Positions 3,770 through 30,826 of a stretch of 31,627 nucleotides of DNA are shown here, piece by piece. How positions within the stretch are numbered: the stretch's first letter is position 1; each line of letters starts with the position of its first letter. This DNA is from a virus. Taxonomy: Duplodnaviria > Heunggongvirae > Uroviricota > Caudoviricetes. The stretch lies in the IMG/VR virus record IMGVR_UViG_3300032315_001694; one strand, 5' to 3'. The position numbers were made by a program, and so were the translations under genes. The notes beneath the pieces are model-generated. The model ran no database searches, was not told the DNA's origin, and worked only from the letters and a program-made list of their open reading frames with translations.

Positions 3770-4885
3770 TTAAATTATATTTAATGTCATATTAACACCA
3801 ATTAAATTATTCAAAGCTAAATCTGATAAATTAAACGTCATTGAATATGATCCCGCCATGGTAATATTCGATACTATTCCTGTTGTTCCTGATATAATCA
3901 TATTTGATTGTTCTAAAGTAATTGAACCATCTCTGTTATCATTAACATTACTAATCAATAAAGTCGATAAATTTGTGAAACTTAAAGTTCCATATGTTGA
4001 CAGAGAAATTGTTGTTGAGAAAGTAAATCCATCACTCGTTGAGAATGAAGAACCAGTTGCACCATTAAATGATATGTAATTATTTGAGGGATTATCACCT
4101 ACGAACTCATAGAAATAAACAACTGGTGATTCGGTATCTGCCGTTGTTGGGTAAGATACATTTGAATTACTCAAAACATAACTTAAGCCTGAATGAGCCT
4201 GTGCCGCATTAAATTCATCAGTAAATACAAATAAAACAGTTCCCAACGCTGAATCATCAAGTGTTACAATGTTTGAAACTCTAGAAACACTTTGAATATT
4301 TGCCAGTTGAAGATAAATAAGAGGATTGCCCGATGTATCTTCAACCACGATAGATTCACCAACCACATAAGATGTGATATCAGTCCAAGAAAGACCAGTG
4401 AATGTTGTAGCACTTTGGTTAGTAGTATCAGGAAAGAAATTGTAAGTATCATCAATAGATGCTACCATAACATCCAAGATAACAGGATATTTAGTGCTTG
4501 GATTAGTTAAGTAAAGTTGTTTGATTCTATTAGTAGAATTACCAGTTAAAATCATAATTCTATTTAGTGGAAATTGTGATGAGAAATTATCATAATAATT
4601 CCAAAGAATATAATTATCTTCTTCATTAACTGATGCTGTGTTATAAGTTGCCTTAATTACTAAAAAAGTAGCATTATCACCTATTCCTAAGTGATTTAAT
4701 AAGTAATTAACTTGACCAGTTTTTAGAATGATTCTACTTTTAAGTAGTTGTTTATAAGGTATTCTAATATCACCACCAATCAATCTTTCGACTGTGTTGA
4801 CACCTTCGATAGCGACTATATCACTACCTTGAAATTTGATATATTGACTTTGATTACCAAATACGCTGGAATTACCACAAGACAT
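3770..4885 (-). CDS. Hypothetical protein, probably virion structural (371 aa)
   Basis: Long ORF, S/T/N/G-rich, co-oriented between large structural-type genes. Confidence 0.75.
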   Translation of the reverse strand: MSCGNSSVFGNQSQYIKFQGSDIVAIEGVNTVERLIGGDIRIPYKQLLKSRIILKTGQVNYLLNHLGIGDNATFLVIKATYNTASVNEEDNYILWNYYDNFSSQFPLNRIMILTGNSTNRIKQLYLTNPSTKYPVILDVMVASIDDTYNFFPDTTNQSATTFTGLSWTDITSYVVGESIVVEDTSGNPLIYLQLANIQSVSRVSNIVTLDDSALGTVLFVFTDEFNAAQAHSGLSYVLSNSNVSYPTTADTESPVVYFYEFVGDNPSNNYISFNGATGSSFSTSDGFTFSTTISLSTYGTLSFTNLSTLLISNVNDNRDGSITLEQSNMIISGTTGIVSNITMAGSYSMTFNLSDLALNNLIGVNMTLNII

Positions 4886-5774
4886 AATTTTTGTTTAATT
4901 TTTTATTTAATTTATCATAAATATTCTCATCATATTTAATAATAATTAATTCAATATTATTATTTAAACAATATTCTCTTTTAATATTATCTCTATTTTT
5001 GATATTATTAAATGTTTCAACACCACCAAAATAATCTACTGGATAATAATGTTGATATCCATTATACTCTATCACTATATTTAATTCCGGAAGAAAGAAG
5101 TCAAATATTAGATCCGATTTGTATTTACAACCATCAAATTTTTTTTGATGTATAAAATCTATTTTATTATTTTTCAATATTGATATTATTTGTAATTCAT
5201 CCTTAGAAGATTTACATTTCGGACATCCTTTCCCAGTCAAATGGGAGTTTGGTGTTTGCATGAACTCTCCATGATTAGAACAAACTATCTTAACCTTCGT
5301 ATTATTATTTTTGTATATAGAAAGTGAATAGCTATATTTTCCATCATGTACAATATTTGATTTTTTAATAAAATCATTACAATTAATTAATACACCACCT
5401 TTACATTTTGGACATCCTTGGTTTTTCAAGTGATTATTAGGAGTTTGTAAAAATTCTCCATGAATGTTACAAATAATAGAAACTTTATTGTGTTTATTTA
5501 TGTAATTTACTTTTGAGTAATCATAAATATTACCATGAATTTTCACTGATTCATTAATAAATGATTGTGTGGATAGTTTATCTGTACCACCACACTTAGG
5601 ACATCCATTTCCGCTCAAGTGATTATTTGGTTTTTGTAGAAAATCCCCATGTAATTTACAGGTGATAGATACTTTATCAATCGATCTTAAATAAATACAA
5701 TTGTCATATTCATACCTTTCACCATGAATAATATTTGATTTATTAATAAACTCTTCTGTTGTTAATTTTTTCAA
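4872..5774 (-). CDS. Free-standing putative homing endonuclease: three C-x2/3-HG-x-F-x-Q-x-P-x2-HL-x2/3-GCPKC Zn repeats plus C-terminal PD-(D/E)xK/Vsr-like nuclease
   Basis: Repeats CKLHGDFLQKPNNHLSGNGCPKC, CNIHGEFLQTPNNHLKNQGCPKC, CSNHGEFMQTPNSHLTGKGCPKC; nuclease motif FDFFLPELNIVIEYNGYQHY; TTG start; 3' end overlaps the next gene by 14 nt. Confidence 0.8.
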   Translation of the reverse strand: MKKLTTEEFINKSNIIHGERYEYDNCIYLRSIDKVSITCKLHGDFLQKPNNHLSGNGCPKCGGTDKLSTQSFINESVKIHGNIYDYSKVNYINKHNKVSIICNIHGEFLQTPNNHLKNQGCPKCKGGVLINCNDFIKKSNIVHDGKYSYSLSIYKNNNTKVKIVCSNHGEFMQTPNSHLTGKGCPKCKSSKDELQIISILKNNKIDFIHQKKFDGCKYKSDLIFDFFLPELNIVIEYNGYQHYYPVDYFGGVETFNNIKNRDNIKREYCLNNNIELIIIKYDENIYDKLNKKLNKNYVLW

Positions 5775-5796: not shown

Positions 5797-5806
5797 TATA
5801 TATTAA
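5797..5806 (-). promoter_or_regulatory. TTAATATATA motif (putative phage late promoter)
   Basis: Recurrent motif upstream of many starts in this window; here in the loop region of an 8-bp inverted repeat (5790-5813). Confidence 0.55.
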
Positions 5807-5817
5807 ATCTAAAATTC

Positions 5818-19754: not shown

Positions 19755-20567
19755 TTAGGAGGAAAGTGGATTTTTACCAAAAATTAACACATCTACTCTA
19801 TTTTCTATTCTAGAAAGAGGTGGAAGTTTAACTTCATCAACAATCCATCTCTCAATCAACATATCCGGGTCTTTTCTAGCGTTGTGTTTAAGAGGTAATT
19901 TATCAAGCTCCTCAGTAGTAAACTTAGCCAAAACTCTTTGCCTTTGAACATAAGTACCACGTTTGAAGAAGTCTGGATAATCATTCCAATTTACACCTTT
20001 TTGGAAAAGAAGTTCCTGCTTTTCAGAACCATTCTTACCGTGAAGGAAATTGTGTGAGTAATACTCAGATGCTGCCATAGTAATAGAGTTTTTAGTAGCA
20101 TCCTGTTCTCTCCAAATAAATGTATTAACTGCTTCATCAAGAGTAGGAACATTGAACACTCTAGCGTCAAATCTCGGCATCAATTCGCCTTTTTCTGGAA
20201 TGAACTTTGGTAGATGTCTGTTAAAATAAACAGAACACATAGAAGCTAAATCAGAAATCATTTTAAAAAGACGACCATTGAAGTAGATAGCTGAGTTAAT
20301 ATCATTAACATACCAAACAAGAGTGATTTCATCAGATTGTGAATAACCACAATTAGCATTAGTTTCCTTAACAAGGTACTTAGTTGTTTCAATCATCAAT
20401 TTTGAAAGCCTTTCATCATAAGGACGTTTCAAACCTTTAGTAAATTTTGAAAATCCCTTACCATCAAGACGAGCGATTACGGGAATACGTGGAAGCATCA
20501 TGATTCCACAGGTTTGGTTTTCGTAAAATTTTTGACGATCACCAAGTGAGTCTTTTGTTTTTTTCAT
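19755..20567 (-). CDS. thg1: Thg1-like tRNA-His guanylyltransferase / 3'-5' polymerase (270 aa; start re-assigned to ATG 20567)
   Basis: RLDGKGFSKFT, YSQSDEITL, FDARVF, WREQDATKNSI, WNDYP..FKRGT motifs. Confidence 0.92.
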   Translation of the reverse strand: MKKTKDSLGDRQKFYENQTCGIMMLPRIPVIARLDGKGFSKFTKGLKRPYDERLSKLMIETTKYLVKETNANCGYSQSDEITLVWYVNDINSAIYFNGRLFKMISDLASMCSVYFNRHLPKFIPEKGELMPRFDARVFNVPTLDEAVNTFIWREQDATKNSITMAASEYYSHNFLHGKNGSEKQELLFQKGVNWNDYPDFFKRGTYVQRQRVLAKFTTEELDKLPLKHNARKDPDMLIERWIVDEVKLPPLSRIENRVDVLIFGKNPLSS

Positions 20568-20651
20568 ATCAGTTTTTCTTTTTTTCAAATTTCTTTGAAA
20601 ATTTTTTAACCACCTTTTGTTCAAAGAAAAATGATATGTTATTTAGTAATA

Positions 20652-20683
20652 CAAATATAAGTTAAAGTTTTTAATTTTTCAAA
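20652..20683 (-). promoter_or_regulatory. Bacteroidota-type sigma promoter (TTTG-N20-TATATTTG) upstream of the Thg1-like gene
   Basis: Exact match to the TTTG / TAnnTTTG consensus with a 20-nt spacer. Confidence 0.7.
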
Positions 20684-20696
20684 TTATCTGTAATGG

Positions 20697-21506
20697 TTAA
20701 ACTGCGACCTGCGTGGTTCCTTTCATATACATTTCTTCAAATTTTTCTATTCTATCTAACAACTCTTTAATTGTTATAACAGATTTTTTGTTTTTACTTA
20801 TATTATCATTATGTATCATCAATCTACAATTAGCAGGATGTGAAATTATTTTTGGATCTATATCCATTTCAAATCCCTCTCTAACTGATAACATATGATC
20901 TCTACTTACACCACCCAAATTATTTTTTTTATTTGTTGGTGAATACCATCCATATTTTTCAACTAAGGAAAAATCGAATTCATCTGAATAATCTTTAAGA
21001 TTGAATTTGAAATTGGAATCTAACCTATACTTCTGATATTCGTCCATATTTTTTCTTCTAAAACTTTTTCTACATTCAGAGGAACAATAACTTAAATCAT
21101 TTCTATCTTTTTGAAAAATATTTCCACAACCTTTACAGGTAATATCATAAATACCAATTTTACCTTCTTCCTTAATACCATTTTCTATAAGATATTTATG
21201 TATTGATTTTCTTATTTTATCTCCCCAGGTGACTTCTCTTCTTCCGTTTGATTCACTTGCAAAGCAAGAGTGATTACAATAATTATTGTCCTTAGAATCA
21301 TATGGTATTATAGTATCACAATGAAGGCATTTCTTTGGATTTTCTAAATACTTTTCTTCTCTTTCTTTTTTCTTTTGTTGGAAAGTATCTGATACTTTAT
21401 CATAATTTCTCAAATATTTATTCACAAATATGTTTCTACAAGTAAGAGAGCAATAAACTCTCTTACCAGTAGTTTCGTTTTCACATTCAATATTTTTACA
21501 CTTCAT
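20697..21506 (-). CDS. Putative HNH-type homing endonuclease with N-terminal CxxC..YCSxxC Zn-finger repeats
   Basis: Three Zn fingers (C..C...YCSLTC, CLHC...YCNHSC, CKGC...YCSSEC); C-terminal SRDHMLSV...ISHPANCRLMIHNDNISK. Confidence 0.75.
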   Translation of the reverse strand: MKCKNIECENETTGKRVYCSLTCRNIFVNKYLRNYDKVSDTFQQKKKEREEKYLENPKKCLHCDTIIPYDSKDNNYCNHSCFASESNGRREVTWGDKIRKSIHKYLIENGIKEEGKIGIYDITCKGCGNIFQKDRNDLSYCSSECRKSFRRKNMDEYQKYRLDSNFKFNLKDYSDEFDFSLVEKYGWYSPTNKKNNLGGVSRDHMLSVREGFEMDIDPKIISHPANCRLMIHNDNISKNKKSVITIKELLDRIEKFEEMYMKGTTQVAV

Positions 21507-21524
21507 AATTTAATATATTTTTAT

Positions 21525-21534
21525 TATATATTAA
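21525..21534 (-). promoter_or_regulatory. TTAATATATA motif within a 10-bp inverted repeat (21509-21535)
   Basis: TTTAATATAT-N7-ATATATTAAA ends 2 nt before ATG 21506. Confidence 0.6.
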
Positions 21535-21586
21535 AGTGGAGAGTTTCCCTATTGAACTATCAACTAGTGATTTTTGCCATACCCCG

Positions 21587-21662
21587 TGGAGCTGGTCGGA
21601 ATCGAACCGACCACATACACTCTTTGCAAAAGAGTCCCGCCAGCCTTGGAACATGCAACCCC
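21587..21662 (-). tRNA. trnA: tRNA-Ala (UGC)
   Basis: Acceptor GGGGTTG/CAGCTCC with G3.U70, A73; anticodon arm ACTCT-TTTGCAA-AGAGT; T arm GTCGG-TTCGATT-CCGAC. Confidence 0.92.
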
Positions 21663-21667
21663 ATGTG

Positions 21668-21740
21668 TGGAGAATAACGGATTTGAACCGATAAATCTTG
21701 CCAGCCAGACAAGTGTTTTAGCCAATTAAACTAATTCCCC
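21668..21740 (-). tRNA. trnA: tRNA-Ala (GGC), atypical U37
   Basis: Acceptor GGGGAAT/ATTCTCC with G3.U70, A73; anticodon arm CTTGT-CTGGCTG-GCAAG. Confidence 0.82.
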
Positions 21741-21778
21741 TGGAGCAGGCACCGTGATACAACGGTGGATCATCCTGC
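21741..21778 (-). other. 38-nt minihelix-like spacer element ending in U-CCA
   Basis: GCAGG-ATGATC-CACCGT-TGTATC-ACGGTG-CCTGC-T-CCA; abuts the 5' end of tRNA-Ala(GGC). Confidence 0.4.
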
Positions 21779-21783
21779 ATTTG

Positions 21784-21857
21784 AGTCGATAACCGGGATC
21801 GAACCGGCTCTATTCCTGCTTGGCAAGCAAGTGCACCACCATTTATGCGTCATCGAC
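21784..21857 (-). tRNA. trnG: tRNA-Gly (GCC)
   Basis: Acceptor GTCGATG/TATCGAC, U73; anticodon arm CTTGC-TTGCCAA-GCAGG. Confidence 0.9.
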
Positions 21858-21861
21858 ATTG

Positions 21862-21935
21862 AGCAGGAGACCGGGATCGAACCGGCTCTATTTCTGATTG
21901 GAAGTCAGAAGCACCACCATTTATGCGTCACCTGC
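21862..21935 (-). tRNA. trnG: tRNA-Gly (UCC)
   Basis: Acceptor GCAGGTG/CTCCTGC, U73; anticodon arm TCTGA-CTTCCAA-TCAGA. Confidence 0.9.
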
Positions 21936-21985
21936 GAGTTTTACATCCTGGTGGGATGAGTTTTTAAGAGTTTTCTTTCTCTTTG

Positions 21986-22056
21986 AGCGGATAGTCAGAA
22001 TCGAACTGACGTCACAGGCTTGGAAGGCTAGTGTAATACCATTATACGATACCCGC
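21986..22056 (-). tRNA. trnG: tRNA-Gly (UCC), anticodon stem with two mismatches
   Basis: GCGGGTA..TATCCGC, U73; loop CTTCCAA; T arm GTCAG-TTCGATT-CTGAC. Confidence 0.85.
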
Positions 22057-22064
22057 AAATATTG

Positions 22065-22154
22065 TTGGCGAAGTGGGATTCGAACCCACGTTTGAAATTA
22101 TCTCAAGATACCGCTACAGGTATAGTGTGTATAAGACACCACTGCTATTCGCCA
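22065..22154 (-). ncRNA. Non-canonical tRNA-like element (7-bp acceptor and T arm intact, no standard D arm, anticodon ambiguous)
   Basis: TGGCGAA/TTCGCCA; hairpins GGTGT-CTTATAC-ACACT, ATACC-TGTAGC-GGTAT, TTGAG-ATAAT-TTCAA; T arm GTGGG-TTCGAAT-CCCAC. Confidence 0.65.
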
Positions 22155-22156
22155 AT

Positions 22157-22190
22157 AAAAAAACCCAGTCATTTTTGATATGACTGGGTT
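22157..22190 (-). terminator. Intrinsic terminator/attenuator hairpin between leader A and the Gly/Ala tRNAs
   Basis: AACCCAGTCAT-ATCAAAA-ATGACTGGGTT (11 bp) followed by a U tract ending 2 nt before the first tRNA-like gene. Confidence 0.88.
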
Positions 22191-22224
22191 ATATTTTTCA
22201 AAATGAAACTTTTATCTCGTTCAT

Positions 22225-22296
22225 TTACATAACACAGCCATTGACTGACGCTCCCGCGCCGCCCCCTATAATCGATATGTTTGTAAATGTATTCAT
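22225..22296 (-). CDS. Leader peptide A, MNTFTNISIIGGGAGASVNGCVM (23 aa)
   Basis: Codons 11-16 are GGG GGC GGC GCG GGA GCG, a GC-rich island in AT-rich DNA; A-rich sequence precedes the ATG; followed by the terminator. Confidence 0.82.
   Translation of the reverse strand: MNTFTNISIIGGGAGASVNGCVM
22229..22241 (-). promoter_or_regulatory. Candidate antiterminator strand of attenuator A
   Basis: AUGGCUGUGUUAU can pair with AUAACCCAGUCAU (22192-22180, terminator 5' arm): 12 of 13 positions including one G.U. Confidence 0.75.
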
Positions 22297-22318
22297 TTCA
22301 GTTTTTATTTTGTAATGT

Positions 22319-22328
22319 TATATATTAA
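22319..22328 (-). promoter_or_regulatory. TTAATATATA motif upstream of leader A
   Basis: Exact motif 22 nt before the leader ATG. Confidence 0.55.
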
Positions 22329-22366
22329 AAGTTTTCAGTCTCTTTTGACTATTTTGATTTATAATA

Positions 22367-22398
22367 CAAATATATTATAAAGTTTTTAATTAACCAAA
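22367..22398 (-). promoter_or_regulatory. Bacteroidota-type sigma promoter (TTTG-N20-TATATTTG) for leader A and the Gly/Ala tRNA operon
   Basis: Exact consensus match with a 20-nt spacer. Confidence 0.7.
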
Positions 22399-22442
22399 TT
22401 TATTTTTATATCATTTCAATTTCACAATATACACTAATACGT

Positions 22443-24416: not shown

Positions 24417-24490
24417 ATGTGATATATATTAAATATTTTTTGTATTTCTAAGTAACATCAACTTTTATAATTTTCCAAATTATAAATTAA

Positions 24491-25195
24491 ATGTTAAATA
24501 CAGGATTTGGTGCCAATAAATCTGATGCTATCAGATTACTTCAAACTACTATAAATATATTGGAAGAGTTTAACATAAATCACTTTTTAATTTCAGGAAC
24601 TTTATTAGGTTACATTAGACATAATGATTTTATTCCGTGGGATGATGATATTGATATATTGGTAGATGAAAGCTTTTTAGATAAATTACAAAAAATATCT
24701 GAAAAATATCCTAATCTGAATATTTTCAGAAAGACCAAACATAAATATGATTCAATTAAATTTTGTTTTTCAGATGGTACAGAGATACCTGAGAATCTTT
24801 CTGTAAAAGAATGGAGAGAAAATTCTATATCTAAAGATAATAAATATTGCTGGCCTTTTATAGATATTTTTATTTATGAAATGGGTCCAGGATTACATAG
24901 TTGTTCTCGTGAGTTTAAAGAAGAAATAATTAATAATATACCTATAAAAATATTTCACCCATTCTCTGGACAATGTTCAGAATGTTTTCGACTATTTTCA
25001 GAAAATGAAATATCATTTTTTCATAATGAATGGAATAAATCAGAATTCTTTCCACCAAAAAGAGTTAATTTATTAGGAGTGGATTGTAATATTCCAAAAA
25101 ATCCAGATTACTTTTTAAGTCTAAACTATGGACCAAATTACATGACCGAAATAAAACCACCAACTATAATACATAAAATAGAAAAAGTAATATGA
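24491..25195 (+). CDS. licD: LicD/fukutin-family nucleotidyltransferase-fold phosphotransferase
   Basis: SGTLLGYIRHNDFIPWDDDIDI, FIDIF and IPKNPDYFLSLNYG motifs. Confidence 0.9.
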   Translation: MLNTGFGANKSDAIRLLQTTINILEEFNINHFLISGTLLGYIRHNDFIPWDDDIDILVDESFLDKLQKISEKYPNLNIFRKTKHKYDSIKFCFSDGTEIPENLSVKEWRENSISKDNKYCWPFIDIFIYEMGPGLHSCSREFKEEIINNIPIKIFHPFSGQCSECFRLFSENEISFFHNEWNKSEFFPPKRVNLLGVDCNIPKNPDYFLSLNYGPNYMTEIKPPTIIHKIEKVI

Positions 25196-26895
25196 TAGAA
25201 GATATTAAAAACCACATCGCGACTGGAGTAGATGCTAAAATATTACAGTATGAAGAAAATGCTGTCGATATTTCAGATGATAAAATTGACTTAGTAGAAA
25301 TATTAGGAGGAAAACAAAATTGCATTCTCATCAACATGGAAAAGGATGTTCAAAGATATCATACATCAGTGGATCAATTAAAGAAAGTATCAATTAAAAA
25401 TTTTGTACACTTAAAAGGCACTGATGGAAGAAATAAAGATAAAAAATATCTTGAGGATGATTTAACTTATATACTTCAGTTTCTAAGTCAATTTAATTCA
25501 GATATAGAACTTAAACAAATAAAAATAAATGATTTTTCTGAAATAAATGACAGTGGTGTTCATATTCAAGATGGACCGCTAGGCTGTTATTGTTCTCATT
25601 TAAGGGCTCTAATTTATGGATATTTAAACTATGAAGATTATACAATTATCTGTGAAGATGATATATCGATAACAAATACTGAGAAAATTGAAAAGTATAT
25701 AAAACAAATTCCAAATGATTGGGATATTATTTGTTTGAATTCAAGAGCAAAAAACATAAGTTACGGAGATTTACCTTTTTATAAATTCACTGATGATTTT
25801 CATTCAGGTCATTTTTATATTGTTAAGAATGAATGTTTGCCGATTTTATTTAGTGGAATGTATCCGATGACTGACCAAGTAGATGTTCTTATGGCCAGTA
25901 TGGTTCATAAACTAAATATCTATAACATACCAGATACGGTTTATCAAAAGAATATTAAAACAAATACCCAAAATAATTTGAGTATTATATTTAGCTCTCC
26001 TAATTATAAATCAGTTACCGAATCATTAAGCAACTCTGAGGAAATATTAAATATTTTAGCTAATAAAATTCTTACAGATAATGAAGAAAGAAATAAAATT
26101 ATTGTTAAAAGTTTAATGCATGATGTTCTTTATAACTTCATACTAACTGATGGAATAAACAATGAACCTGGCCCAAATATTGAAAATTATCAATTTGATA
26201 ATATTTATAAAGATGATCCCGATTTTATTCTTTTAGAAAAATATATCACTTTCTTCTTACAGTGCTCTAGAAAAGGAATTAATCCTCAATTGTCCGCCAA
26301 AGGATTATCAAATGTTTGCTTATTCACGTTAGATAAATTTAGTGAATTACATAACACACTAAATGAATCTGGAGAAATAATAAAAGCTCATAGTTTTGGT
26401 TCTACTGCACACACATATAAAATTGGAGATAATCTACTTAAAAGATATAATAATAGATTAAGATGGGCCACTGAAGGTCATGAAAATGTTGATGATATAA
26501 TTAGTAAAGAATTAGATTTATTATCAAAAGTAGGATCAAAAGTAATATGGAGTAATAATAGAAATATTTTGATGCCTTATTATGGTGAATCGTTATATAA
26601 TGATTTCAATCTACCAACCGATTGGAAAGAACAGATAACTAAAATATTCTCAGATTTAACTAATAAAGGCATTTTTTATCCAGAGTTTAGATTACAAAAT
26701 ATATTGACCTTAAATGGTAAGATCACATTTGTGGATTTCGGATTAGCAGAATTTAGAACCGAATGTGATAATACAGAGAATCTTAATAAGTTTATTAAAT
26801 ATTTAAGTTTAATGGAAGTAAGGTTTAGAAATGTTAATGATATAGATGAACTACATAGGCTAATTTCAACTTTCTATTTGAATAAAGGATTATAA
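25192..26895 (+). CDS. Glycosyltransferase family 25 domain fused to a C-terminal protein-kinase-like domain
   Basis: GT25: CILINMEKDVQRY, GTDGR, LGCYCSHLRAL, IICEDD. Kinase-like: GSTAHTYKI, FYPEFRLQNIL, ITFVDFGLA. ATGA overlap with licD. Confidence 0.8.
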   Translation: MIEDIKNHIATGVDAKILQYEENAVDISDDKIDLVEILGGKQNCILINMEKDVQRYHTSVDQLKKVSIKNFVHLKGTDGRNKDKKYLEDDLTYILQFLSQFNSDIELKQIKINDFSEINDSGVHIQDGPLGCYCSHLRALIYGYLNYEDYTIICEDDISITNTEKIEKYIKQIPNDWDIICLNSRAKNISYGDLPFYKFTDDFHSGHFYIVKNECLPILFSGMYPMTDQVDVLMASMVHKLNIYNIPDTVYQKNIKTNTQNNLSIIFSSPNYKSVTESLSNSEEILNILANKILTDNEERNKIIVKSLMHDVLYNFILTDGINNEPGPNIENYQFDNIYKDDPDFILLEKYITFFLQCSRKGINPQLSAKGLSNVCLFTLDKFSELHNTLNESGEIIKAHSFGSTAHTYKIGDNLLKRYNNRLRWATEGHENVDDIISKELDLLSKVGSKVIWSNNRNILMPYYGESLYNDFNLPTDWKEQITKIFSDLTNKGIFYPEFRLQNILTLNGKITFVDFGLAEFRTECDNTENLNKFIKYLSLMEVRFRNVNDIDELHRLISTFYLNKGL

Positions 26896-26930
26896 TTATA
26901 AGTTGGTATTTTAAATTATTAGTTTAAAGT

Positions 26931-26940
26931 TTAATATATA
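26931..26940 (+). promoter_or_regulatory. TTAATATATA motif
   Basis: Exact motif 23 nt before ATG 26964. Confidence 0.55.
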
Positions 26941-26963
26941 CCATTAGAAAAAAAAATACAAAT

Positions 26964-27284
26964 ATGAAACACATTAAAAAATTCAATGAGAGTCTTGAAA
27001 GAGGACAAATTATATTTTCAGGGGAAACTAAAAATGGTTGGAAATATAATATAGTATCAACTGATGGTTCAAGAGATGAATTAAAATTAACATCAGAAAG
27101 AGGATCAGATTTAGATGCCAGTGAAATGCTACATGAAGCAGTTGATGCTTATATTGAGGGAGGTTCAAGCACTAAGGGATTTTTTGTTGATGTTGAAGAT
27201 ATAACAGAAGCTTATGATAAAATGATGTCACTTGTTGACCATGCTTCAAGTTTAGATGGTTTGGTTACCATGGAAGATATTTAA
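26964..27284 (+). CDS. Small acidic protein (106 aa), candidate internal head protein
   Basis: N-terminus MKHIKKFNES; late-type motif upstream. Confidence 0.7.
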   Translation: MKHIKKFNESLERGQIIFSGETKNGWKYNIVSTDGSRDELKLTSERGSDLDASEMLHEAVDAYIEGGSSTKGFFVDVEDITEAYDKMMSLVDHASSLDGLVTMEDI

Positions 27285-27292
27285 TTTTTTTT

Positions 27293-28114
27293 TCATATCC
27301 TGCCATTCAATGTATTTACCTTACAATCTGACTTTTCTTTTATCAGTTTAGTTAGAAATTCTAAATCATCTGATCCATATTCAATTAATCTATATTTAGA
27401 TATCTTCCATTGAATTACATCTTTGAATTTATCAGGATCTTGCTCACCATTTTGATTTCTACTATTATCATAAAATCTTTTAATTAAATCTTTTTGAGCA
27501 TAAAAGAACAATAAAGTATTTCTATTTTTTATTGTCGTATTAAAACCGTGATATGAATAAAAATGTGGAGCAAAAAAAGAAACACTATTCGGAACATATT
27601 TTGAAACCTTACATGGTTTCAAATCTTTATCATAAAGTATTGTTCCATTATCTAACTCTTCTTGCTCCGTTAATTCATTCTCTGGGATATAAAAAATAAC
27701 TGATATAAATTGAGCGGGTATATCAGTGTGTATTTTCTGAAATCTATTTTCATCTGTATAAACAAATTGTAAATCATGATTAAAACACATCTCATCTACA
27801 TGATTACCATAATAAAACTTTTTCATTAGAGCATCTTTTATCTCTCTATCATCAAATACATCTCTAACTATATCAATCTCTAAATCATTAATATCTTTTA
27901 AACTAAATTTCTTATTCATGAAATTTGGGTTATCCCAATTCCTATCTTGTAAATTTTCATTGTATTTATAATACAACATTTTATCTTTTAATGCCTGATA
28001 AAAATCATTTGGAAAAATATCATTAACATAAAGATTATAAAAAGGATAAATATTTACATCTGTTAATTCTATCTTTTTTAAAACATGATATTTAATATCC
28101 TTAATAGATGTCAT
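27293..28114 (-). CDS. 2OG-Fe(II) dioxygenase
   Basis: IHTD (HxD), NGTILY, distal YHGF and RNTL motifs of the DSBH fold. Confidence 0.8.
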   Translation of the reverse strand: MTSIKDIKYHVLKKIELTDVNIYPFYNLYVNDIFPNDFYQALKDKMLYYKYNENLQDRNWDNPNFMNKKFSLKDINDLEIDIVRDVFDDREIKDALMKKFYYGNHVDEMCFNHDLQFVYTDENRFQKIHTDIPAQFISVIFYIPENELTEQEELDNGTILYDKDLKPCKVSKYVPNSVSFFAPHFYSYHGFNTTIKNRNTLLFFYAQKDLIKRFYDNSRNQNGEQDPDKFKDVIQWKISKYRLIEYGSDDLEFLTKLIKEKSDCKVNTLNGRI

Positions 28115-28721
28115 TTATAGTAGTTATTTTTCTAAGATATTTATCATCACCGAGTATTAGGTTATAATCATATTTTAACTTAGATACAATTGGCAAAACC
28201 TCACAATATATATTACTCTCAATATATTCTCTAAAAATAGACTTGAATAATTTAAAATTAGTTATTTGTGGAGAACATAATTGAATATATTTATCTCTAT
28301 TAGGAATTTCCCAGGAACCAGATTCATTAATCTTAGCCAATCCATTAACAATTGGAAGATAATATTGAGAATGGAAATTATTCTTTTGAGATTCAATTAA
28401 ATTATTAATACAATCTTTTGTTATGAAAGGTCGAGCTGCATCATGAATCAAAATATTTGAATAATCATCATTAAGATAATCCAAAGCAGTTTTAATAGAT
28501 TTAATTCTATCATCAACATCATTTACTAAAATCTTATTATTAGTTATAATTTGACTATAACAAGTTGAATTAGTTATTATAATAACCTCATCTAACAACC
28601 GATTTAATATATCAATTGAGTGATTGATAATAGGCTTACCATTAATTGTATAAAGTTGTTTCGGAATAGAATTATTAAATCTAGAACTTTTACCAGCGGC
28701 TAAAATTATACCAACATTCAT
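28101..28721 (-). CDS. ispD: IspD/TarI-like cytidylyltransferase (206 aa; start re-assigned to ATG 28721)
   Basis: GIILAAGKSSRF..PKQ, ILIHDAARPFI, KITTINDI motifs. Confidence 0.88.
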   Translation of the reverse strand: MNVGIILAAGKSSRFNNSIPKQLYTINGKPIINHSIDILNRLLDEVIIITNSTCYSQIITNNKILVNDVDDRIKSIKTALDYLNDDYSNILIHDAARPFITKDCINNLIESQKNNFHSQYYLPIVNGLAKINESGSWEIPNRDKYIQLCSPQITNFKLFKSIFREYIESNIYCEVLPIVSKLKYDYNLILGDDKYLRKITTINDIY

Positions 28722-28770
28722 ATAACTTATATAAAAAAAACAATTAGAGTTTTTCATCTATAATTAGAAT

Positions 28771-29016
28771 ATGTATGACCAAAATGAAAAATTAAAAGAA
28801 ATTATCAACTCTGATAAATTAGATATAACACTAACTATGAATATCTTAATTAATGCTGTTAAGGCTAATTGGGAAAAATTTAATACTGTTGATAAATTCT
28901 TAATTGGGAAATCCTTACAAACAATAGAATACTATTTTGAAAAAAAAGAGGATATTGTTATTAAATTTAAGAAGGATGTATTCCCAGTCGGTGACGATCC
29001 GACTTCTTCTCGCTGA
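28771..29016 (+). CDS. Hypothetical protein (81 aa); last ~12 codons are antisense to tRNA-Glu(CUC)
   Basis: ORF track; plausible helical sequence. Confidence 0.55.
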   Translation: MYDQNEKLKEIINSDKLDITLTMNILINAVKANWEKFNTVDKFLIGKSLQTIEYYFEKKEDIVIKFKKDVFPVGDDPTSSR

Positions 29017-29052
29017 GAACGAGATGAACTAACCAACGTATTCGATGGGAAC
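28979..29052 (-). tRNA. trnE: tRNA-Glu (CUC)
   Basis: Acceptor GTTCCCA/TGGGAAT; anticodon arm TCTCG-TTCTCAG-CGAGA; T arm GTCGG-ATCGTCA-CCGAC. Confidence 0.82.
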
Positions 29053-29796
29053 ATTTTTTTTATATATTTTTATCCACTTCCTGATAGAATTATCCGATAC
29101 TCCATATTTCCTACCAACTCCAACATATCCAAGTAAAGATATTTCTTCCAAAAGTTCTTCATAAGGTGGTCTTTGCACTTTTCTTCTTTTTTCCATAGCC
29201 TCAATAAAAGTATCCTTTTTAGAATTTATAATTTCTATACCTTTACTATTTTTATGATAACAAGACTTACAAGTTTTACTATCTTTTCGTTTTTTATTAC
29301 CACACTCACATAAATCAAATCTTGTATATTTATCTTCCTTTTTTACATTTAATCCACGACAATGAGTTTCTAATGTTGCGTTACAATTTGGACAAACAAT
29401 TCTTAAATTTTCAATTCTGTTATCGTGTCTATCACCATTGATATGGTCTAATATAAGTGACATTCTTTTACCTTGCCAGGTTTCATCTTGATGACATAAC
29501 TCACAAATTGGACTCTTTAGATTAAGTTTATACAATTTATTTTTTAAGTGATTTGTTGACTTGTAAGTCGAATTTTTGACTAAAACCTCTGATATTTCTC
29601 TAGCAACAAAAAATCCTCTTATACCTACTTGTTTATGTGGCTCAAAATGAGATACGTCTATATTGTTATTAGTGATAAAATAAGATAGTGTATTGTAATT
29701 ACCTCCGTTATTTTTAAGATTAAGTTTATTCAAAACATCAGTTTTATTGATAGATTTTGAAATGATTTCTTTTATATATTCAGTATTTTTCCACAT
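29029..29796 (-). CDS. HNH homing endonuclease inserted in the Tyr/Glu tRNA array (255 aa; start re-assigned to ATG 29796)
   Basis: CELC...LDHINGDRHDNRIENLRIVCPNCN; C-terminal Zn ribbon and HTH-like segment; TTAATATATA at 29814-29823. Confidence 0.88.
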   Translation of the reverse strand: MWKNTEYIKEIISKSINKTDVLNKLNLKNNGGNYNTLSYFITNNNIDVSHFEPHKQVGIRGFFVAREISEVLVKNSTYKSTNHLKNKLYKLNLKSPICELCHQDETWQGKRMSLILDHINGDRHDNRIENLRIVCPNCNATLETHCRGLNVKKEDKYTRFDLCECGNKKRKDSKTCKSCYHKNSKGIEIINSKKDTFIEAMEKRRKVQRPPYEELLEEISLLGYVGVGRKYGVSDNSIRKWIKIYKKNVPIEYVG

Positions 29797-29846
29797 AAAA
29801 TTTATTTTTATTTTATATATTAAAATACCGAGCCTCCCTAAATGAG

Positions 29847-29934
29847 TCGGAGTGGATGGATTTGAACCACCGATGTTTACCACTTGGGTAGGAAATTTAC
29901 AGTTTCCTGGGATCAGCCTCTACCCTACACTCCG
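29847..29934 (-). tRNA. trnY: tRNA-Tyr (GUA) with C1-G72
   Basis: Acceptor CGGAGTG/CACTCCG, A73; GGAAA-CTGTAAA-TTTCC; long variable arm. Confidence 0.85.
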
Positions 29935-29939
29935 TTTTG

Positions 29940-30010
29940 TACTCCCGAGCGGTTACGATCCGCCGTCTATGCAGTGAAAGTGCATCGATCTTCCATTAAT
30001 CTACGGGAGC
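29940..30010 (-). tRNA. trnE: tRNA-Glu (UUC)
   Basis: GCTCCCG/CGGGAGT; ATGCA-CTTTCAC-TGCAT; T loop ATCGTAA. Confidence 0.85.
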
Positions 30011-30017
30011 ATTTTAG

Positions 30018-30105
30018 TGGGTGTGGTAGGACTCGAACCTACGATGTTAGTCATAAAGACCTCTGGTTTACAGCCAAAGCCAATCGCCGCTATGGTGACA
30101 CACCC
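30018..30105 (-). tRNA. trnY: tRNA-Tyr (GUA)
   Basis: GGGTGTG/CACACCC, A73; TTTGG-CTGTAAA-CCAGA; long variable arm. Confidence 0.9.
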
Positions 30106-30110
30106 TTTCG

Positions 30111-30181
30111 TAGCTCGTAGGGGTAACGATCCCCTCTTTCTTGGTTGAAAACCAAGCGTCCTTCCTCTAGACGAACGAGCC
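30111..30181 (-). tRNA. trnE: tRNA-Glu (UUC)
   Basis: GGCTCGT/ACGAGCT; CTTGG-TTTTCAA-CCAAG; T loop ATCGTTA. Confidence 0.85.
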
Positions 30182-30187
30182 AAGTTG

Positions 30188-30275
30188 TTGGAGTGGAAGG
30201 AATCGAACCTCCTAAACACCCATACGCCATTTTTTAAACTGTGGGGGCTTTACGTGCCCCTGCCGTTACACTCCA
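30188..30275 (-). ncRNA. Non-canonical tRNA-like element (7-bp acceptor and T arm intact, no standard D arm, GUA-containing hairpin)
   Basis: TGGAGTG/CACTCCA; GGGGC-ACGTAAA-GCCCC; T arm GGAGG-TTCGATT-CCTTC. Confidence 0.65.
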
Positions 30276-30298: not shown

Positions 30299-30337
30299 AA
30301 ACAAAAAACCCAATCAAGTCTGAGTTGATTGGGTTTT
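30299..30337 (-). terminator. Intrinsic terminator/attenuator hairpin between leader B and the Tyr/Glu tRNAs
   Basis: AAAACCCAATCAA-CTCAGAC-TTGATTGGGTTTT (13 bp) continuing TTGTTTTT. Confidence 0.88.
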
Positions 30338-30359: not shown

Positions 30360-30455
30360 TTAACTTAAACACATAGCCTTATCAACTACGAACTTTTGCT
30401 CATATTCATAACCTTCATAAGAAGAAACGATTGTTATGTTTGTAGTGTTAGACAT
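30360..30455 (-). CDS. Leader peptide B, MSNTTNITIVSSYEGYEYEQKFVVDKAMCLS (31 aa)
   Basis: Codons 13-19 are TAT GAA GGT TAT GAA TAT GAG; followed by the terminator. Confidence 0.82.
   Translation of the reverse strand: MSNTTNITIVSSYEGYEYEQKFVVDKAMCLS
30377..30387 (-). promoter_or_regulatory. Candidate antiterminator strand of attenuator B
   Basis: AGUUGAU-AA-GG can pair with CC-CA-AUCAACU of the terminator 5' arm and loop (7 bp + 2x2 internal loop + 2 bp). Confidence 0.55.
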
Positions 30456-30491: not shown

Positions 30492-30523
30492 CAAATATAA
30501 GATGATTTTTTTGTATCACCAAA
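30492..30523 (-). promoter_or_regulatory. Bacteroidota-type sigma promoter (TTTG-N20-TATATTTG) for leader B and the Tyr/Glu tRNA operon
   Basis: Exact consensus match with a 20-nt spacer. Confidence 0.7.
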
Positions 30524-30547
30524 TATTTTTTGAAATATTTTTGTTTG

Positions 30548-30628
30548 TTGCGGGAAGAGGATTTGAACCTCTGTCTTACATTGTTCCGGGTTATGAGCCC
30601 GGTGACCTTACCACTAGTCCACCCCGCG
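30548..30628 (-). tRNA. trnfM: Initiator tRNA-fMet (CAU) with a 13-nt variable loop
   Basis: C1.A72 mismatch; CCGGG-CTCATAA-CCCGG with three G-C pairs next to the loop. Confidence 0.87.
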
Positions 30629-30638
30629 ATGTTTTTTG

Positions 30639-30710
30639 TAGCGGGAGTAGGAATTGAACCTACGACCTCAAGGTTATGAGCCTTGCGAGCCACCACTGCT
30701 CTATCCCGCA
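30639..30710 (-). tRNA. trnM: tRNA-Met (CAU), initiator-like
   Basis: TGCGGGA/TCCCGCT with a U1.U72 mismatch; CAAGG-CTCATAA-CCTTG (only two G-C pairs adjacent to the loop). Confidence 0.85.
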
Positions 30711-30725
30711 ATATTTTATAGATTG

Positions 30726-30735
30726 TATATATTAA
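30726..30735 (-). promoter_or_regulatory. TTAATATATA motif upstream of the Met tRNA pair
   Basis: Exact motif 15 nt before the tRNA 5' end. Confidence 0.5.
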
Positions 30736-30795
30736 AAAGTTTTAGTCCCTTTTTAACTTTTTTCAAAAATTGTTTCAGTTCTTGAACCAACAATA

Positions 30796-30826
30796 CAAAG
30801 ATACGGATTATTTTTGAACTGCCAAA
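30796..30826 (-). promoter_or_regulatory. Bacteroidota-type sigma promoter (TTTG-N19-TATCTTTG) upstream of the Met tRNA pair
   Basis: Consensus match. Confidence 0.6.

Follow-up and report, generated by a model that had tools for sequence, protein, structure and literature searches.

The window analysed here is the whole of a 31,627-nucleotide (nt) stretch of viral DNA, IMG/VR record IMGVR_UViG_3300032315_001694 (Caudoviricetes). It is phage-like DNA with a GC content of ~30%. It contains a short leader open reading frame (ORF), followed by an intrinsic terminator and then by a cluster of transfer RNA (tRNA) and tRNA-like genes. This arrangement, termed module A, is considered here as a candidate transcription attenuator. 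Window coordinates are used throughout, and all elements of module A lie on the minus strand. Read 5' to 3' on that strand, they are as follows.

22367-22398, minus: match to a host-type promoter, TTTG-N20-TATATTTG, by pattern match to a Bacteroidota-like -33/-7 consensus
22319-22331, minus: CTTTTAATATATA motif, a recurrent phage motif lying 20-35 nt upstream of start codons
22225-22296, minus: leader ORF A, 23 codons plus TAA
22276-22289, minus: region 1, candidate anti-antiterminator strand, which pairs with 22226-22240 in the minimum-energy fold
22249-22278, minus: putative regulatory codons 7-16, ATA TCG ATT ATA GGG GGC GGC GCG GGA GCG
22229-22241, minus: region 2, antiterminator 5' strand, AUGGCUGUGUUAU, which pairs with region 3
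22180-22192, minus: region 3, the terminator 5' arm plus 2 nt upstream, common to terminator and antiterminator
22162-22190, minus: intrinsic terminator hairpin, 11 base pairs (bp), 7-nt loop, -15.7 kcal/mol
22155-22161, minus: U-tract TTTTTAT, ending 1-2 nt before the first tRNA-like gene
22064-22154, minus: non-canonical tRNA-like gene of Ile(UAU) type, 91 nt, CUUAUAC loop, the first gene behind the terminator
21985-22056, minus: tRNA-Gly(UCC)
21861-21935, minus: tRNA-Gly(UCC)
21783-21857, minus: tRNA-Gly(GCC)
21667-21740, minus: tRNA-Ala(GGC), the single canonical Ala tRNA of the cluster, with an anticodon that does not read GCG
21588-21665, minus: non-canonical tRNA-like gene of Ala(UGC) type, UUUGCAA loop

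Leader ORF A follows an A-rich untranslated leader without a Shine-Dalgarno sequence. Its codons 7-16 are strongly non-random in both amino acids and codon choice, because GGG, GGC and GCG are rare in the long ORFs of the window: GGG and GGC make up 1% and 5% of Gly codons, and GCG 7% of Ala codons. Five of the six Gly/Ala codons in the leader are thus rare in the phage. Rare or wobble-read regulatory codons would sharpen the sensitivity of such a sensor, a gain argued for amino-acid attenuators (PMC1183508). Ten codons of the leader are cognate to the downstream genes by amino acid, and nine of these are strictly decodable by the downstream anticodons UAU, UCC, GCC and UGC.

An earlier note on this DNA had singled out codons 11-16, and GGG GGC GGC GCG GGA GCG is indeed found there. 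The run it described was too short, however: the first gene behind the terminator is Ile(UAU)-type, and therefore ATA codons 7 and 10 also belong to it. ARAGORN called that gene (22064-22154) 'Tyr(ata)', a call that was rejected in view of its CUUAUAC loop, which is of the Ile(UAU) type. A canonical tRNA-Ile(UAU) occupies the same position in the complete huge-phage genomes LR745206 (635 kb) and LR756502 (642 kb). The decoding scheme proposed in the earlier note holds for GGA and GGG, read by the two UCC copies, and for GGC, read by GCC. For GCG it holds in part, since the matching UGC anticodon occurs only in a non-canonical gene. The 'two Ala tRNAs' of that scheme reduce to one canonical tRNA, with anticodon GGC, and this tRNA-like gene. 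ARAGORN makes no call at 21588-21665, and the gene scores 23.8 bits against the Rfam tRNA-clan model, below threshold. A homologous copy exists in LR756502, and the orthologous clusters contain a canonical Ala(UGC). The first Gly tRNA shares ~82% identity with the tRNA-Gly region of T4-like phages. As a separate observation, a small, conserved GC hairpin with a GGGA (GNRA-like) loop lies inside the Gly/Ala run (22249-22266, minus).

Terminator A begins 34 nt past the leader stop codon and shows compensatory changes across six leaders. It abuts the first tRNA-like gene, as had been claimed: the U-tract ends 1-2 nt before 22154, which leaves no space for a further promoter. The proposed pairing of the leader 3' end with the terminator 5' arm is likewise borne out. 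The duplex 22241-22229 : 22192-22180 is paired at 12 of 13 positions, with one G-U pair, and its energy of -13.8 kcal/mol compares with -9.0 +/- 1.9 kcal/mol in dinucleotide shuffles (p=0.02). The full antiterminator, at -16.4 kcal/mol, is competitive with the terminator, at -15.7 kcal/mol, and the whole leader A fold has z=-3.8.

To model the effect of a translating ribosome on this switch, a transcript ending at the terminator loop was folded with a masked ribosome on successive codons. While the A site lies anywhere from codon 1 to codon 15, upstream sequence pairs with 10 of the 11 terminator arm bases, in the antiterminator. At codon 16 the count falls to 7 of 11, and from codon 21 to the stop codon it is 0. 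The textbook geometry suggested earlier is thus reproduced, with the antiterminator kept while the ribosome is at codons 1-15 and abolished at the last codons and the stop. For the complete transcript with a stalled ribosome, the terminator and antiterminator folds are nearly equal in energy.

Orthologs of leader A were recovered by two routes. A distant DNA search found them in LR745206 and LR756502; pattern scanning together with a covariance model added two IMG/VR contigs (L105 and L125), giving a five-ortholog set that includes the window leader. The pattern GGCGCGGGAGCG-N5-12-TGGCTG has 53 IMG/VR matches, of which the covariance model accepts L105 and L125; the rest were set aside as chance matches. 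A synteny search with the upstream gene of 657 amino acids in IMG/VR and metagenomes returned relatives of 35-63% identity, none of which adjoins a tRNA array.

All five leaders share the ATG, an AACATA box, an Ile/Gly/Ala run with GGCGCGGG, a TGGCTG core, a TATG box and the terminator, and all are followed by Gly/Ala tRNAs, with or without tRNA-Ile. The UGGCUG:CAGUCA core of the antiterminator is invariant, and the antiterminator is paired in 86% of ortholog cells, compared with 27-46% when the partner is slid, so the conservation expected of homologous leaders is present. Covariation within the A family is uninformative, since 7 of the 12 antiterminator pairs never vary. Three orthologs translate the TGGCTG core as GGC-TG(N) and the other two as TGG-CTG, and the C-terminal peptide is unconserved. 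Because the core falls in two frames, TGGCTG is constrained as RNA and not as peptide. GGCGCGGG is also invariant in the five orthologs, even across an indel in LR756502 that alters the peptide.

The same design precedes most tRNA blocks in five other huge phages. Modules were collected by covariance-model and tRNA-model searches of five huge-phage records, followed by a scripted scan of their tRNA regions, yielding 29 modules in six genomes: 27 in the five records and two in the window (module A and its sister, module B). By our own assignment, ~60-85% of the tRNA genes in these genomes lie behind such a module. The middle part of each leader spells the amino acids of the tRNAs behind it. Examples of leaders and their tRNA blocks are His/Lys/Phe/Trp, Ser/Arg, Asn/Leu/Thr/Val/Met/Ile and Leu alone, and further examples are Thr/Pro/Ala/Val/Arg/Gly, Leu/Ser/Cys and Lys/Gln/Tyr.

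This correspondence is far from chance. On average, a fraction of 0.446 of the residues in a leader is cognate to the tRNA block behind it; permuting leaders and blocks gives 0.180 +/- 0.021, and none of 100,000 permutations reaches the observed value. Because orthologs are not independent, the leaders were also deranged within each genome, and none of the derangements reaches the observed match (0/1854, 0/1854, 0/265, 0/9 and 0/2). Under strict wobble rules, 304 of 344 cognate codons in the 29 modules are decodable by a downstream anticodon.

The second signal is pairing. In 26 of 29 modules, the 3' part of the leader is complementary to the 5' arm of its own terminator beyond shuffles (p<0.05 each; Stouffer Z -16.4), with a mean of -13.8 kcal/mol for the module's own leader and -8.4 kcal/mol for unrelated leaders. 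Such module-specific complementarity supplies the covariation that is not visible within the A family by itself; the covariation check suggested in the earlier note was accordingly made across the 29 modules. The third signal joins the first two. A metaprofile was centred on the last A-site position that still allows the antiterminator, a choice that depends on the assumed ribosome footprint. Of the 10 codons ahead of this on/off boundary, 74% are cognate, compared with 20% past it; the share of cognate codons reaches 79-93% at positions -6 to -1 and is ~20% beyond +3. With the ribosome at the stop codon, the antiterminator is off in 27 of 29 modules. The 1:2 element is less uniform, with a Stouffer Z of -6.6 over the modules and individual significance in 8 of 29.

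A nested pair of attenuators occurs at L055:2704-3752 in LR745206 and at L063:2459-3546 in LR756502. Here, a Pro/Asp leader that also contains Gln codons stands before the Pro and Asp tRNAs, and these are followed by a poly-Gln leader, with its own terminator, before the Gln tRNAs, an order that would imply two-level control of the distal Gln block. The strict terminator finder used for the modules, which may have missed imperfect hairpins, gave no module at one Ile/Cys/Asp/Asn block (W04), at suppressor-like CUA tRNAs or at tRNA-Met genes. The CUA-anticodon tRNAs, labelled 'Pyl' by ARAGORN, occur singly or as a pair without a recognisable leader in LR756500 (L068) and LR756501 (L075), where they hint at stop-codon reassignment in these phages. 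Matches of model R1 at L034, L036, L037, L038 and L048 were rejected as modules because they are plain terminators ending protein genes.

Taken together, these features argue that module A is a ribosome-mediated (leader-peptide) transcription attenuator controlling a phage tRNA operon, a reading to which we assign a probability of roughly 0.84. Transcription would start at a promoter or promoters upstream of 22331, and the 23-codon leader would be translated as RNA polymerase advances. Scarcity of charged tRNA-Ile(UAU), tRNA-Gly(UCC or GCC) or tRNA-Ala(UGC) would stall the ribosome within codons 7-16, leaving 22241-22229 free to pair with the emerging terminator 5' arm. With the terminator blocked, the polymerase would enter the Ile-like, Gly, Gly, Gly, Ala and Ala-like tRNA genes. 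Under fast decoding, a ribosome at the last codons or at the TAA would cover 22241-22229, the 11-bp terminator would form, and transcription would end 1-3 nt before the first tRNA-like gene. If the leader is not translated at all, the 1:2 hairpin could perhaps hold region 2 and favour termination. Such a circuit would constitute negative feedback, matching the supply of the tRNA block to demand, and would be one of a genome-wide set of modules. The phage probably makes its Ile, Gly and Ala tRNAs only when ribosomes run short of them.

Several points weigh against this reading. That the promoter is used, the leader translated, the ribosome stalled and read-through conditional is in each case deduced from sequence. 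The footprint of the masked folds, extending +12 nt beyond the A-site codon, and transcription-translation coupling in the host are both assumptions. The ATT codon of leader A has no strict decoder downstream, and decoding of GCG relies on the non-canonical Ala(UGC)-type gene. Conservation of GGCGCGGG(A)GCG at the nucleotide level suggests a possible extra role for the RNA itself, for example as a polymerase pause hairpin or in slowing the ribosome. The complete leader without a stalled ribosome prefers the terminator at equilibrium, and therefore the switch must be kinetic, as in trp. The 1:2 hairpin of leader A (22289-22276 with 22240-22226) has an energy of -22.8 kcal/mol but only p=0.10 against shuffles, and the element pairs in 63% of ortholog cells, no higher than shuffles. 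Finally, the truncated ribosome-free fold already forms the antiterminator; read-through is therefore predicted without translation, unless the 1:2 hairpin acts as a kinetic trap.

These last points bear most directly on the rival that survives best, which we nevertheless consider unlikely. Here, translation of the leader would still gate the tRNAs but through some other read-out, whether global translation status, RNA cleavage, ribosome rescue or Rho. An equilibrium fold that favours the terminator and a weak 1:2 element speak for this alternative. Against it stand codon specificity, the strongest signal in the data, and an antiterminator strand that is significant in 26 of 29 modules and lies exactly one ribosome half-footprint downstream of the cognate run; a global sensor, moreover, would need no block-specific leaders.

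It is very improbable that the hairpin is an ordinary unregulated terminator or insulator, with a fortuitous ORF beside it and tRNAs supplied by leaky read-through or an unrecognised promoter. The AAACCCAGTCA...TGACTGGGTTTTTT hairpin is admittedly generic in these phages and also closes protein genes, as at the five rejected R1 loci (L034, L036, L037, L038 and L048). A plain terminator leaves unexplained why leader amino acids agree with downstream tRNAs across 29 modules, why the leader 3' end is complementary to its own arm in a module-specific way, and why cognate codons are placed as they are relative to the antiterminator strand. Moreover, the ORF is retained in all orthologs, and the candidate promoters lie upstream of it, with none between the terminator and the tRNAs.

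We give equally little credence to the idea that the products of the short ORFs are functional micropeptides, such as tRNA-associated or membrane peptides, next to an incidental terminator. The N-termini are alike across modules (M-K/N/T-T/N...N-I), and the 31-residue product of leader B was predicted by the gene caller in the source contig. Yet the C-terminal halves are unconserved, the TGGCTG core is translated in two frames among orthologs, and the middle of the peptide varies with downstream tRNA identity, when no peptide family would be expected to track anticodons. The shared start, M-K/T/N-T/N, probably helps translation to initiate efficiently on A-rich mRNA that has no Shine-Dalgarno sequence.

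Least likely of all is T-box-like sensing, in which leader triplets would pair with the anticodons of uncharged tRNAs without a ribosome: triplets complementary to downstream anticodons are present and T-boxes are established regulators of other translation-apparatus genes, but there is no T-box or known leader family among the Rfam matches, the triplets stand in one frame between an ATG and a stop codon, a single leader carries up to seven specificities, and specifier-loop or T-box-bulge architecture is lacking. An origin of the leaders as degenerate tRNA fragments was rejected by reasoning alone, since a translated tRNA remnant would not yield cognate amino acids.

The attenuator reading of module A places it beside well-known systems. 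Most known regulation of tRNA genes acts at the promoter, through stringent and growth-rate control. To our knowledge, all described leader-peptide attenuators control amino-acid biosynthetic enzymes, transporters or synthetases, whereas the genes behind terminator A are tRNA and tRNA-like only. A full-text literature search found no leader-peptide or attenuator control of tRNA genes, phage or cellular, and, within the same scope, no codon-sensing control of phage tRNA arrays and no codon-specific feedback on tRNA synthesis. No Rfam leader family (His, Leu, Thr, Trp or others) and no T-box model matches the window at gathering thresholds, or 21540-22420 at E up to 5.

Like trpL, hisL, leuL, pheL, thrL and ilvL, the modules combine a short leader ORF bearing a run of regulatory codons, rare codons among them, with an intrinsic terminator overlapped by a mutually exclusive antiterminator. 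In the trpL type, stalling of the ribosome exposes the antiterminator strand, which is covered once the ribosome reaches the stop codon; the module folds fit the same logic. The ilv and thr leaders are multivalent, as are the modules, which list up to seven amino acids per leader. Apart from the 1:2 element, module A appears to have the defining features of leader-peptide attenuators, and what is new is the target, the tRNA genes. Unlike the trpL type, the modules precede tRNA genes, so that the charged tRNA sensed belongs to the operon's own product class and autoregulation would be direct. They also differ in being carried by phages, before most tRNA blocks of a genome, in lacking sequence or covariance-model similarity to Rfam leader families, and in having a promoter of a type without Shine-Dalgarno-dependent initiation.

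Closer in function are pheST of E. coli, with its pheM leader, and the His-codon leader peptides before hisS/hisZ in bacilli (Naville and Gautheret 2010, PMC2965389). These resemble the modules as leader-peptide attenuation of a translation-apparatus gene serving the same amino acid, but they control aminoacyl-tRNA synthetase proteins, whereas the modules would control the tRNA itself, with a terminator abutting the 5' end of the first tRNA. T-box riboswitches share with the modules a conditional terminator/antiterminator that reads the status of specific tRNAs by codon-anticodon pairing and the control of translation-related genes. T-boxes, however, are monovalent, adopt a conserved fold and need no ribosome for their direct binding of uncharged tRNA, and none of these features is found in the modules.

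A broader proposal is that the entire tRNA complement of huge phages, and of at least some cultured phages such as phiCbK, operates as a set of codon-addressed, demand-driven circuits; it is tentative, and we hold it at somewhat less than even odds. The repertoires of tRNAs in huge phages were reportedly described by Al-Shayeb et al. in 2020. The cultured phage phiCbK (JX100813) is laid out in the same way: terminators that the depositors predicted, annotated at 48120-48166, 49745-49769 and 51465-51502, lie directly 5' of tRNA blocks. Ser, Leu, Pro and Lys are abundant in the 45-residue gp083, which is followed by Pro, Lys, Leu and Ser tRNAs; a short ORF containing Q-F-V-R-Q-I-Q-V-V is followed by Phe, Val, Ile and Gln tRNAs. 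phiCbK thus offers a cultured system for experimental work on the modules.

If the proposal is true, a tRNA block would stay off unless its codons were being decoded slowly in the infected cell, and one phage could tune its tRNA supplement to whichever host it had entered. The circuits would also respond automatically to degradation or depletion of specific tRNAs by the host, whether through shut-off or through anticodon-nuclease defences. Nested leaders, Pro/Asp/Gln followed by poly-Gln, would give hierarchical control. If the modules themselves work as proposed for module A, phage tRNAs would represent demand-driven complementation of host decoding, perhaps with a response to tRNA-targeting defences. 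Textbook attenuation would then be extended to non-coding genes, and it would become clear how phages with dozens of tRNAs avoid needless synthesis. The leaders would be compact, modular sensors of decoding speed for chosen codons. They also list the tRNAs of one transcription unit in readable form, including non-canonical tRNA-like genes.

Two kinds of candidate start signal precede leader A. The host-type match at 22398-22367 lies ~70 nt from the ATG, and its promoter function is judged from consensus alone. The host group, and hence transcription-translation coupling, we likewise infer from the promoter consensus alone. A scan of the window with TTTG-N20-TATATTTG gave six matches against 2.2 expected, and four of the six precede leader A, leader B, a tRNA-Met pair and a Thg1-like gene. 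The CTTTTAATATATA motif also occurs 5' of the A-type leaders in LR745206, LR756502 and the two IMG/VR contigs, and may be a second, phage-specific promoter or start signal. Sites of the form (C/T)TTTAATATATA lie on the minus strand at 22319-22331, 30726-30738, 29814-29826, 21525-21537, 24423-24435 and 5797-5809, consistently placed 15-35 nt 5' of start codons or tRNA genes. As a loose pattern, (C/T)TTTAATATATA is not significantly enriched in the window (14 matches against 10 expected).

Module B, the second module of the window, comprises the following elements.

30492-30523, minus: promoter match of leader B, host-type consensus
30360-30455, minus: leader ORF B, 31 codons, with the run Y-E-G-Y-E-Y-E
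30305-30337, minus: terminator B, intrinsic, 13 bp
29846-30272, minus: tRNA block B, with a Tyr(GUA)-type tRNA-like gene, Glu(UUC), Tyr(GUA), Glu(UUC) and Tyr(GUA)
28978-29052, minus: tRNA-Glu(CUC) of block B, past an HNH gene

Leader B is a paralogue of leader A, and its orthologs keep the Tyr/Glu richness with the order of residues shuffled. In modules A and B alike, the gene directly behind the terminator is a non-canonical tRNA-like gene. The three such genes of the window, at 22064-22154, 30185-30272 and 21588-21665 (all minus), keep their acceptor and T arms and have rearranged D and anticodon regions; their loops are of the Ile(UAU), Tyr(GUA) and Ala(UGC) types, respectively. The codon content of the leaders helps to assign their putative Ile, Tyr and Ala identities.

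Two tRNA-Met(CAU) genes at 30547-30710 (minus) have a host-type promoter match at 30796-30826 and a TTTTTAATATATA motif, and they form the sole tRNA group of the window without a leader ORF or terminator. One of them, of 82 nt, is initiator-like, with a C1-A72 mismatch and a GGG/CCC anticodon stem. The absence of a leader here fits the attenuator reading, because an elongation sensor could not report on an initiator tRNA.

ORFs resembling HNH or homing endonucleases lie in or beside the tRNA arrays at 29029-29883, 20697-21506 and 4872-5774 (minus), one of them separating Glu(CUC) from the other module B tRNAs. Related huge phages also carry endonuclease insertions, such as a GIY-YIG-like ORF within the Gly block of LR756502, and phage tRNAs are similarly interspersed with homing endonucleases in the T4 tRNA cluster and in huge-phage arrays. 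About 1 kb downstream of tRNA array A, a gene for a protein of the Thg1-like tRNA-His guanylyltransferase family (19755-20624, minus; Pfam PF04446, E=7e-29) has its own host-type promoter match at 20652-20683; its product may act in tRNA 5'-end maturation or repair. A ~6.5-kb block, listed at 24491-28757, carries LicD-family, glycosyltransferase-25 and IspD-like cytidylyltransferase genes and looks like an inserted sugar or teichoic-acid-type modification cassette. It parts modules B and A; in LR745206 and LR756502 the two modules lie next to each other.

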